64,000 nt of DNA from a virus. Its lineage: Duplodnaviria; Heunggongvirae; Uroviricota; Caudoviricetes. Both the position numbers and the translations under genes were made by a program. The notes below the pieces were generated by a model. The model was not told the origin of the DNA. It was given only the letters and a program-made list of their open reading frames with translations, and did no database searches. Where the stretch lies: IMG/VR virus record IMGVR_UViG_3300043178_000179, one strand, 5' to 3'. Below, one piece after another: positions 34,277 to 34,350 of the stretch (position 1 is the first letter of the stretch; each line of letters opens with the position of its first letter).

Positions 34277-34350
34277 GACCCCTTAGCTCAGTGGCAGAGC
34301 CGGCGTCTTTAAAGCGCTTCGTGTCCGGGGTTCGATTCCCCGAGGGGTCT
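34277..34350 (+). tRNA. tRNA with apparent UUA anticodon (ochre-suppressor-like), stand-alone
   Basis: Acceptor GACCCCT/AGGGGTC. D-arm gctc-agtggca-gagc. Anticodon hairpin ggcgt-cTTTAaaa-gcgct with a loop of cTTTAaa. T-arm cgggg-ttcgatt-ccccg. Confidence 0.5.

Follow-up and report, generated by a model that had tools for sequence, protein, structure and literature searches.

A tRNA gene with an ochre-reading anticodon beside a member of an unannotated protein family in a high-GC phage genome

The stretch of DNA analyzed here (the window) is the virus record IMGVR_UViG_3300043178_000179, with a length of 64,000 nucleotides (nt). It is a fragment of a large phage genome of the Caudoviricetes rather than a host chromosome into which an element has inserted. 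The window contains a stand-alone transfer RNA (tRNA) gene with the anticodon UUA, hereafter tRNA(UUA), which is followed by a small protein-coding gene, hereafter the partner gene, and preceded by an orphan gene (table 1). A Shine-Dalgarno-like GAGGA (34471-34475) is located 6 nt ahead of the ATG of the partner gene, and a consensus scan of positions 33100-35000 detected neither a sigma-70-type promoter nor an intrinsic terminator. The pairing of tRNA(UUA) with a conserved gene was missing from the preliminary description of this DNA.

Table 1. Coordinates of tRNA(UUA), its neighboring genes and other features of the window
Feature	Position	Strand	Basis or remark
Second stand-alone tRNA-like gene, anticodon CAA (Leu), loop CUCAACA	33247..33319	+	ARAGORN tRNA-Leu(caa); Rfam 50.9 bits
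Upstream orphan gene, 150 amino acids (aa)	33793..34245	+	Gene call; ends 31 nt before tRNA(UUA)
G at position -1, can pair with U73 as an eighth acceptor pair (g+t)	34276	+	ARAGORN cloverleaf drawing
tRNA gene, anticodon UUA (ochre-reading)	34277..34350	+	ARAGORN, Rfam, minimum free energy (MFE) fold, direct reading
Anticodon 5'-UUA-3'	34309..34311	+	Direct reading; Rfam alignment and ARAGORN drawing concur
Spacer from tRNA(UUA) to partner gene, 131 nt	34351..34481	+	Sequence
Partner gene, 131 aa, all-helical product, ends in TAG	34482..34877	+	Codon-model gene call; starts 132 nt after tRNA(UUA)
Sole called gene ending in TAA	39231..39497	+	Codon-model gene call; only local substrate for ochre read-through
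Main array, 41 tRNAs for all 20 amino acids	42114..50080	+	ARAGORN, Rfam
tRNA-Lys(CUU), intact	45122-45196	+	ARAGORN, Rfam
tRNA-Lys(UUU), intact	45247-45319	+	ARAGORN, Rfam
Transfer-messenger RNA (tmRNA) inside the array, tag ANNNNHFEARAAA	46506-46877	+	ARAGORN, Rfam

ARAGORN reported tRNA(UUA) as a tRNA-Stop with the anticodon tta at 34276-34351, and the Rfam covariance model RF00005 matched it over its full length (34277-34350, model positions 1-71) with 55.6 bits, the gathering score being 29 (whole-window E = 2.9e-9). The acceptor stem (GACCCCU/AGGGGUC) is formed by seven Watson-Crick pairs, the D arm reads GCUC-AGUGGCA-GAGC and the T arm (CGGGG-UUCGAUU-CCCCG, with the loop UUCGAUU) is perfect. 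The anticodon stem (GGCGU/GCGCU) has 5 bp, including G27.U43 and U31.G39, the latter closing a loop of 7 nt, CUUUAAA (34307-34313; C32, U33, U34, U35, A36, A37, A38). All tertiary and loop nucleotides, that is, U8, A14, G18-G19, U33, a purine at 37, G53-U54-U55-C56 and A58, are kept in the Rfam alignment, and so is A9. The variable loop, UCGUGUC, has 7 nt, and the discriminator U73 (34350) follows a body of 73 nt. tRNA(UUA) has no encoded CCA, so CCA addition would be required; most tRNAs of the main array carry a C, CC or CCA, followed by a T.

The MFE and centroid folds of tRNA(UUA) gave the same cloverleaf. No sense anticodon, UUU or other, was found by a shift of register in its loop. In this respect, the preliminary description, which had read a stand-alone UUA tRNA with a perfect acceptor stem and T arm and with two G-U pairs in a 5-bp anticodon stem, was correct on each of these points; its own refuting possibility, a covariance model that moves the loop to UUU, did not materialize, and both Rfam and ARAGORN place UUA at positions 34-36. 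tRNA(UUA) is a structurally sound, canonical tRNA gene with an ochre-reading anticodon. The anticodon is not an artefact of assembly, because an independent assembly (Logan SRR12687342) contains the tRNA with 100% identity. The same phage is also present in two JGI samples (3300043243 and 3300037465).

The partner protein belongs to a family with 63 homologues besides itself, with identities of 40-52% to family members, and retains all invariant residues; the open reading frame (ORF) in the window has no in-frame stop. The alignment of the family showed the conserved motifs SLAAEAxIIR, HRxxVVRxExRxxLLAYAFLRGRPY, PDW and a C-terminal W. The protein had no match in Pfam, PHROG, NCBIfam, PADLOC or the sequences of the PDB. 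Its AlphaFold2 model (predicted local distance difference test score, pLDDT, 95.5) is all-helical, and its N-terminal part forms a long helical hairpin. When 1.84 billion representative proteins, clustered at 50% identity, were searched with a profile, 3,761 clusters were recovered, 2,981 of them at E <= 1e-10, and among 185,579 bacterial and archaeal species genomes only one match, in a metagenome-assembled genome, was found. The family is large, unannotated and essentially restricted to phages.

The 150-aa product of the upstream gene had no homologue besides itself among 5.8 billion proteins. Two neighbors were considered as remote members of the partner family and rejected, namely this 150-aa protein (hhalign probability 0.5%) and a neighbor of 163 aa (probability <1%).

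In the first nine contexts of the family, a tRNA or tRNA-like gene is located 100-280 nt upstream of the homologue, and in two of them (L010 and L017; L numbers denote the loci) it is the sole tRNA within 20 kb. Their anticodon loops are CUUUAAA (the window), CUCUAAC, AUUCUAA, CUUCUAC/A, CUUUCAAU and UUUCAA. The collection was then extended to 66 viral, 37 metagenomic and one genomic loci, which gave 99 after dereplication; these are dereplicated but not phylogenetically independent. With ARAGORN at default stringency, 51 of the 99 have a tRNA on the same strand within 400 nt of the family gene. From the 72 tRNAs at this distance, 42 carry a stop anticodon or an abnormal loop, compared with eight out of the 96 tRNAs farther away within the loci (odds ratio 15.4, Fisher p = 2.3e-12, calculated on loci that are not phylogenetically independent). 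The 42 unusual tRNAs comprise 24 with CUA, ten with "ttca", four with "tc", two with UUA and one each with "ct" and "ccta". The tRNA is placed on either side of the gene and the gaps are short, with 23-100 nt between an upstream tRNA and the start codon and 6-9 nt between the stop codon and a downstream tRNA. Such short gaps are typical of a co-transcribed pair, and in the window tRNA(UUA) and the partner gene may likewise be co-transcribed.

A detector of adjacent loops that is independent of score thresholds was applied to the 87 complete loci. It assigned the adjacent loop to CUA in 18 loci, to an 8-nt class xUUUCAAx in 11 (plus two ambiguous cases, scored as UUC), to UCU in four and to UUA in one, which is the window; another 13 had other loops and 38 had none. 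At four of 11 "empty" loci, Rfam added partners unseen by ARAGORN, each of which has the 8-nt loop (C/A)UUUCAA(U/C). A UUA tRNA with the same CUUUAAA loop as in the window also occurs near a family member at L085. In their bodies and acceptor stems, the partner tRNAs fall into several unrelated types; the recurring element is the class of the anticodon and not a single tRNA lineage. The window combines both elements of this arrangement, that is, a family member on the same strand within ~400 nt and the stop anticodon UUA in the adjacent tRNA.

Cultured phages provide further cases. In the Stenotrophomonas phage DLP_5 (NC_042082), the depositors annotated a tRNA-Sup-CTA that follows the family member gp070 at a distance of 8 nt, and an SPFH gene is close by. 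The Sup-CTA is also present in DLP3; DLP3 and DLP5 are 95%-coding phages of standard code (PMC7326821). In the N4-like Agrobacterium phage OLIVR1, the family member gp025 (L090, 1989-2456) is annotated as "putative structural protein" and adjoins the virion RNA polymerase gene; a tRNA is found ~100 nt upstream. An SPFH/Band-7 gene lies ~2-3 kb from the tRNA-protein pair both in the window (31574-32470, + strand) and in DLP_5 (L089, from 5221), which may be synteny or coincidence.

The 8-nt loops form a group of their own. tRNAs with (C/A)UUUCAA(U/C) were located at L016, L018/L019, L034, L036, L042, L045-L047, L049, L062, L068, L074, L082, L105 and others. Some have degenerate D arms, and ARAGORN often misses them or labels them "tRNA-???". 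Their loop may decode as UCA, UUC or a quadruplet, that is, a UGA, GAA or quadruplet codon.

The preliminary description had also suggested that a stop codon might be reassigned. A codon model trained on the window's own genes of high GC at third codon positions (GC3) called 73 genes, which end in TGA (55), TAG (17) and TAA (one). The window has 66 TAA trinucleotides, 34 on the + and 32 on the - strand, and none is in frame inside a called gene. Flanking contigs contributed ~8 kb with 12 more genes, none of which ends in TAA or contains TAA in frame. Over these ~72 kb, the stops of the 85 genes are TGA in 66, TAG in 18 and TAA in one, with no in-frame TAA or TAG. Gene calling with TAA as a sense codon yielded no additional gene in the window. 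The phage uses the standard code over the ~72 kb examined, with the late structural region lying outside it, and the suggested reassignment finds no counterpart there.

Read-through of the single gene that ends in TAA would add 174 codons with a noncoding-like GC3 of 0.51. There is no sign of programmed read-through, because this extension looks noncoding. Other candidates did not withstand the six-frame analysis of coding potential: the TAA at 40160 precedes the start of the coding signal, those at 31266 and 31532 lie in sequence without a convincing signal, and ORFs of high GC3 "interrupted" by TAA opposite real genes are antisense shadows. When the window was scanned for stops of any kind with coding signal on both sides in the same frame, the cases were limited to TGA between same-frame neighbors and to antisense shadows, and included no TAA or TAG. 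Pfam or PHROG scans of 40 window proteins revealed neither a release factor nor an aminoacyl-tRNA synthetase, which often accompany a change of code.

A different relation between stop codon and tRNA was found in four diverged loci of the family (L029, L031, L037 and L053). In these, the partner ORF starts M-T-TAG-I-x-x-LKIKIKSLAAEA and a tRNA(CUA) ends 23-38 nt upstream. The ORF starts at about position 3000 in L029, L037 and L053 and ~960 in L031, and a ribosome-binding site of the AAGGAG type is implied upstream of the ATG. Since codon 3 is a TAG and the tRNA(CUA) immediately precedes the ORF, the protein would be made only if the adjacent tRNA suppresses UAG; expression in this subgroup looks like being gated by suppression. 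The TAG at codon 3 is limited to these four loci and is missing from the ORF in the window. General TAG recoding was rejected for them, as long neighboring ORFs have no in-frame TAG, though only 4-6 kb of sequence could be considered. Two further relations were rejected. The stop of the partner gene does not correlate with the adjacent anticodon (the stops of CUA-partnered genes are TAA in six cases, TAG in three and TGA in five). Similarly, no conserved dependence on AGA exists in UCU-partnered genes; the AGA positions lack conservation, and CUA-partnered genes contain AGA as well.

Regarding the ancestry of tRNA(UUA), the closest tRNA within the window has an identity of at most ~75%. In a search of 50,697 phage records, tRNA(UUA) was most similar to annotated tRNA-Lys genes from Microbacterium phages, with 79% identity along 95% of its length. 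The next best match is a tRNA of the 595-kb phage LR756511, called tRNA-Lys(UUU) by ARAGORN, whose acceptor stem, U8-A9 and T loop are identical to those of tRNA(UUA). The loop CUUUAAA equals the loop CUUUUAA of tRNA-Lys(UUU) with U36 changed to A. In a nearest-neighbor test with masked anticodon against 168 distinct tRNAs, three of the five Lys tRNAs ranked in the top seven. Origin from a tRNA-Lys is most likely, as a best guess from these similarities and with caution over U73. Both Lys tRNAs of the main array are intact, and tRNA(UUA) is an extra gene and not a replacement of a tRNA-Lys.

Apart from this, phage LR756511 (L021) carries, besides its tRNA-Lys(UUU) with the shared acceptor stem, a tRNA(CUA) 3 kb away (3018-3091 and 6000-6072). 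In IMGVR_UViG_3300047388_000185 (L022), a tRNA-like sequence at 11632-11750 has the same 5' acceptor strand and D arm as tRNA(UUA). It contains ~45 extra nt in place of the anticodon arm, which makes it intron-like or disrupted, and is not called by ARAGORN.

The reading favored here, with a rough probability of 0.55, is that tRNA(UUA) is a genuine, low-cost ochre suppressor of the phage, most likely of lysine type, and the UUA variant of a two-gene cassette in a phage whose code is not reassigned. The gene would have arisen through U36 to A in a loop of the tRNA-Lys(UUU) type. Its anticodon would pair with UAA, and wobble at U34 would probably extend the reading to UAG, so that the tRNA may compete with release factors at both codons. 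The cost to the phage should be little, because TAA ends ~1% of its genes, the codons AAA and TTA are almost unused and the standard code is clean. With the gene that follows it, tRNA(UUA) would represent the UUA version of a widespread cassette composed of a stop-reading or expanded-loop tRNA and a small, basic, helical protein, probably transcribed together. The protein is expected to work with the suppressor or to be gated by it. It may promote or limit read-through, or its production may depend on active suppression; the latter is supported by the subgroup in which a TAG at codon 3 follows closely on a tRNA(CUA). Possible roles of the pair include the modulation of termination, the gating of a late function and an effect on host translation. 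Together, the tRNA and the protein family suggest a portable read-through module.

Several observations weigh against this suppressor reading. U73, the variable loop of 7 nt, the two G.U pairs in the anticodon stem and the missing CCA are atypical for an efficient tRNA-Lys, and both Lys tRNAs of the array have A73. The isotype margins are thin, with 57 identities to the best Lys tRNA and 55 to Thr and CUA tRNAs. UAA is read by both release factors (RF1 and RF2), and its suppression should be inefficient. Among the 87 complete loci, the canonical 7-nt CUUUAAA is directly adjacent only in the window, and UUA could have arisen recently. Sense anticodons are present in some partner tRNAs (UCU and UUC-like loops), and the suppressor specificity of the family is not absolute. 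Fold searches of the partner protein returned only generic helical hairpins and three uncharacterized phage proteins; its best homologue besides itself reaches an identity of 52%, and the gene upstream of the tRNA is an orphan. Lastly, no diverged close relative of the phage that would show conservation of UUA exists in the databases searched. In the respective searches, a megablast of 32000-36500 against phages returned nothing, an anticodon-free pattern of the tRNA had no match in viral contigs, the relatives of a 490-aa neighbor were only 40-52% identical and had no tRNA nearby, and a NUDIX-like neighbor had no relatives.

The tRNA might instead be a partner RNA that does not decode. It would be the RNA ligand of the helical protein, as in a ribonucleoprotein, or a decoy for host anticodon nucleases attacking U34 tRNAs such as tRNA-Lys; UUA would be incidental and a pyrimidine-rich loop with AA would serve as the recognition motif. 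The variation of partner loops by small indels around a U/C-rich theme with AA (CUCUAAA, CUUUAAA, CUUCUAA, CUUUCAAU and AUUUUAAC) fits this, and homologous tRNAs with the same acceptor carry CUA in L010 and UCU in L011 and L012, one inserted U apart, which is odd if the codon is constrained. Many partners have 8-nt loops or degenerate D arms and are rejected by ARAGORN, and conserved Arg, Lys and His abound in the protein, whose long helical hairpin weakly recalls the tRNA-binding arms of SerRS and FemA. On the contrary, the TAG conserved at codon 3 in four loci makes sense only with decoding of UAG, and tRNA(UUA) is fully canonical (U33, A37, T loop, G18-G19 and a 7-bp acceptor stem), which leaves a nondecoding role unlikely. 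A neutral or decaying duplicate is quite unlikely as well. In that case, a surplus gene of tRNA-Lys type would have acquired U36 to A or an indel in the loop, would be poorly charged and would be tolerated in a phage where TAA is almost unused. The array already supplies tRNA-Lys(UUU) and tRNA-Lys(CUU), the departures from a typical tRNA-Lys listed above could be signs of decay, the neighboring tRNA-like gene (33247-33319) seems clearly degenerate, and the window is the sole canonical UUA case of the 87 loci, with no in-frame TAA to serve. Against decay stand the intact stems and the kept tertiary positions, with a score (55.6 bits) inside the range of the array tRNAs (33.9-70.9 bits). Moreover, tRNA(UUA) sits exactly where stop-anticodon tRNAs adjoin the family in other phages, and UUA tRNAs with the same loop exist near family members elsewhere, as in L085.

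A true decoder of reassigned TAA, serving late structural or lysis genes beyond the ~72 kb, is improbable. Recoded phages do concentrate in-frame stops in late genes and keep early regions standard (Borges et al., bioRxiv 10.1101/2021.08.26.457843). TAA is nearly abandoned as a stop here, and since the window has no recognizable capsid, portal or terminase gene, the late region is largely unseen. Nevertheless, none of the 85 genes, including those of lysin type (141-2696 and 41025-41855), has an in-frame TAA, and public gene calls on the matching contigs are dense. Both RF1 and RF2 recognize UAA, which makes its reassignment hard. In addition, no case of TAA recoding emerged when 10,754 jumbo phage genomes were surveyed (PMC13037316). 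The preliminary description further proposed an integration site, with the tRNA marking the attB/attP junction of a mobile element, and this is very improbable. The tRNA-like fragment that it noticed 1 kb upstream is real (the gene at 33247-33319, with two acceptor mismatches and no cloverleaf in its MFE fold) and its "lower-GC gap" exists in a weak form, with 67-70% against a window mean of ~71%. tRNA genes are common targets of integration. Still, phage genes and uniform composition without a junction extend for tens of kb on both sides, the neighboring proteins scanned contain no integrase domain and the tRNA-like gene is unrelated to tRNA(UUA) in sequence. There is no direct repeat of the 3' half of tRNA(UUA), apart from the T arm of an array tRNA-Thr that differs at three positions.

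In Escherichia coli, the ochre suppressors supG and supL are tRNA-Lys genes in which the anticodon UUU has become UUA. They share with tRNA(UUA) a type-I, Lys-like body and the loop CUUUAAA, and both would be expected to read UAA, and UAG by wobble, against release factors. The two differ in that supG and supL are laboratory mutants of a chromosomal gene, whereas tRNA(UUA) is wild type and phage-borne, lacks an encoded CCA and has U73 and a variable loop of 7 nt. In contrast to them it is physically coupled to a dedicated partner protein, and its presumed Lys identity is drawn from thin margins of sequence.

Suppressor tRNAs of phages are known mainly as decoders in gut phages with recoded TAG or TGA. 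Those of crAss-like, Lak and Agate phages resemble tRNA(UUA) in being phage-encoded, in acting in a standard-code host and in reading a stop that composition has made rare. They read UAG or UGA in low-GC gut phages with many in-frame stops, whereas tRNA(UUA) would read UAA in a phage of 71% GC with no in-frame stop in 72 kb. For low-GC phages, a model of "rare stop first, suppressor second" has been proposed (Borges et al., bioRxiv 10.1101/2021.08.26.457843).

The pair of tRNA-Sup-CTA and gp070 in DLP5 and DLP3 (NC_042082; PMC7326821) is closer to the case of the window, being the same cassette in a phage of standard code with an SPFH gene within a few kb. There, the anticodon is CUA, the tRNA is 8 nt downstream of the gene (132 nt upstream in the window), the host is gammaproteobacterial and the tRNA heads a small cluster. 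The only neighbor of phage suppressor tRNAs described in the searchable literature is the theta (HDV-like) ribozyme, which adjoins them and is proposed to control their activity (PMC10879173). That partner is a self-cleaving RNA of gut phages, whereas the partner in the window is a protein, and the searchable literature yielded no account of a protein as partner of phage suppressor tRNAs. Rfam scans showed no theta-like ribozyme near tRNA(UUA); only tRNAs and the tmRNA reached the gathering threshold and nearby matches were weak and at the level of chance.

A natural tRNA predicted to read UAA, in a phage of 71% GC where TAA is disused, would extend the order of rare stop and then suppressor to the opposite composition. 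A testable handle is the unannotated phage family (~3,700 clusters) with its physical link to amber, ochre and expanded-loop tRNAs, the more so with members in the cultured phages DLP5 and DLP3 of Stenotrophomonas and OLIVR1 of Agrobacterium. If the protein modulates termination or the activity of suppressor tRNAs, it would be a new kind of translation factor and a candidate tool for the expansion of the genetic code. If not, the cassette still marks unusual tRNAs, for instance those with 8-nt loops, which are overlooked by standard tRNA finders.

A wider proposal may be made only tentatively. The helical protein could be a dedicated factor of nonsense suppression, for example one that antagonizes release factors at the A site or that escorts or stabilizes suppressor tRNAs. 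Together with its tRNA it might form a portable module, swapped among phages in amber, ochre and opal versions; in some lineages, the TAG at codon 3 would delay synthesis of the factor until suppression operates. On this proposal, the first natural ochre version would be that of the window, in a huge phage of high GC, as a mirror of the low-GC route to TAG and TGA recoding and possibly as a first step toward a reassignment of TAA, which is unreported in phages.

With respect to the rest of the window, its GC content is ~71% throughout, and ARAGORN and Rfam found 43 tRNAs and a tmRNA. The scans of its proteins recognized the two lysin-type genes, including an endolysin, a DNA methyltransferase, an HNH endonuclease and ThiF-, SPFH-, NUDIX-, PAPS-reductase- and PcfJ-like genes. 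In IMG/VR and the annotated phage collection, the window has only distant relatives (40-52% protein identity), one of which is a 485-kb "huge phage". The tRNA-like gene at 33247-33319 has type-I length, two noncanonical pairs in the acceptor stem and a C at position 37, and possibly represents a decayed tRNA.

In the 17,124 codons counted, AAA occurs only twice and TTA is likewise almost unused. The array includes tRNA-Lys(UUU) despite the two AAA codons, and its tRNA set is not tuned to the codon usage of the phage. Odd members are located at 49678-49763, 42478-42563, 45442-45509 and 42568-42638 (+ strand). They comprise a tRNA of 86 nt with the anticodon CAU and a long variable arm, a Leu-like type-II tRNA reported by ARAGORN with an "anticodon" of 2 nt (ga), and two short tRNAs with reduced D arms, that is, tRNA-Gln(UUG) of 68 nt and tRNA-Trp of 71 nt. 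Protein genes lie in or beside the array at 43024-44184 (+), 48068-49336 (-) and 50124-50738 (+). Among the products of these genes are a PAPS-reductase/PP-loop-like protein (PHROGs) and an HNH endonuclease; one has a precomputed AcrVA2-like Pfam hit, listed for L008, which our own Pfam scan did not reproduce.

Two stretches, 39927-40828 and 30763-31574, have no confident gene by public calls or by the codon model; their coding potential is weak and switches frame, and they may hold small or frameshifted genes or noncoding RNA. Finally, two pairs of adjacent genes on the + strand share a frame and are split by a TGA and one codon, that is, 9471-9773/9777-10907 (TGA at 9771) and 52297-52845/52849-54000 (TGA at 52843), probably by chance.

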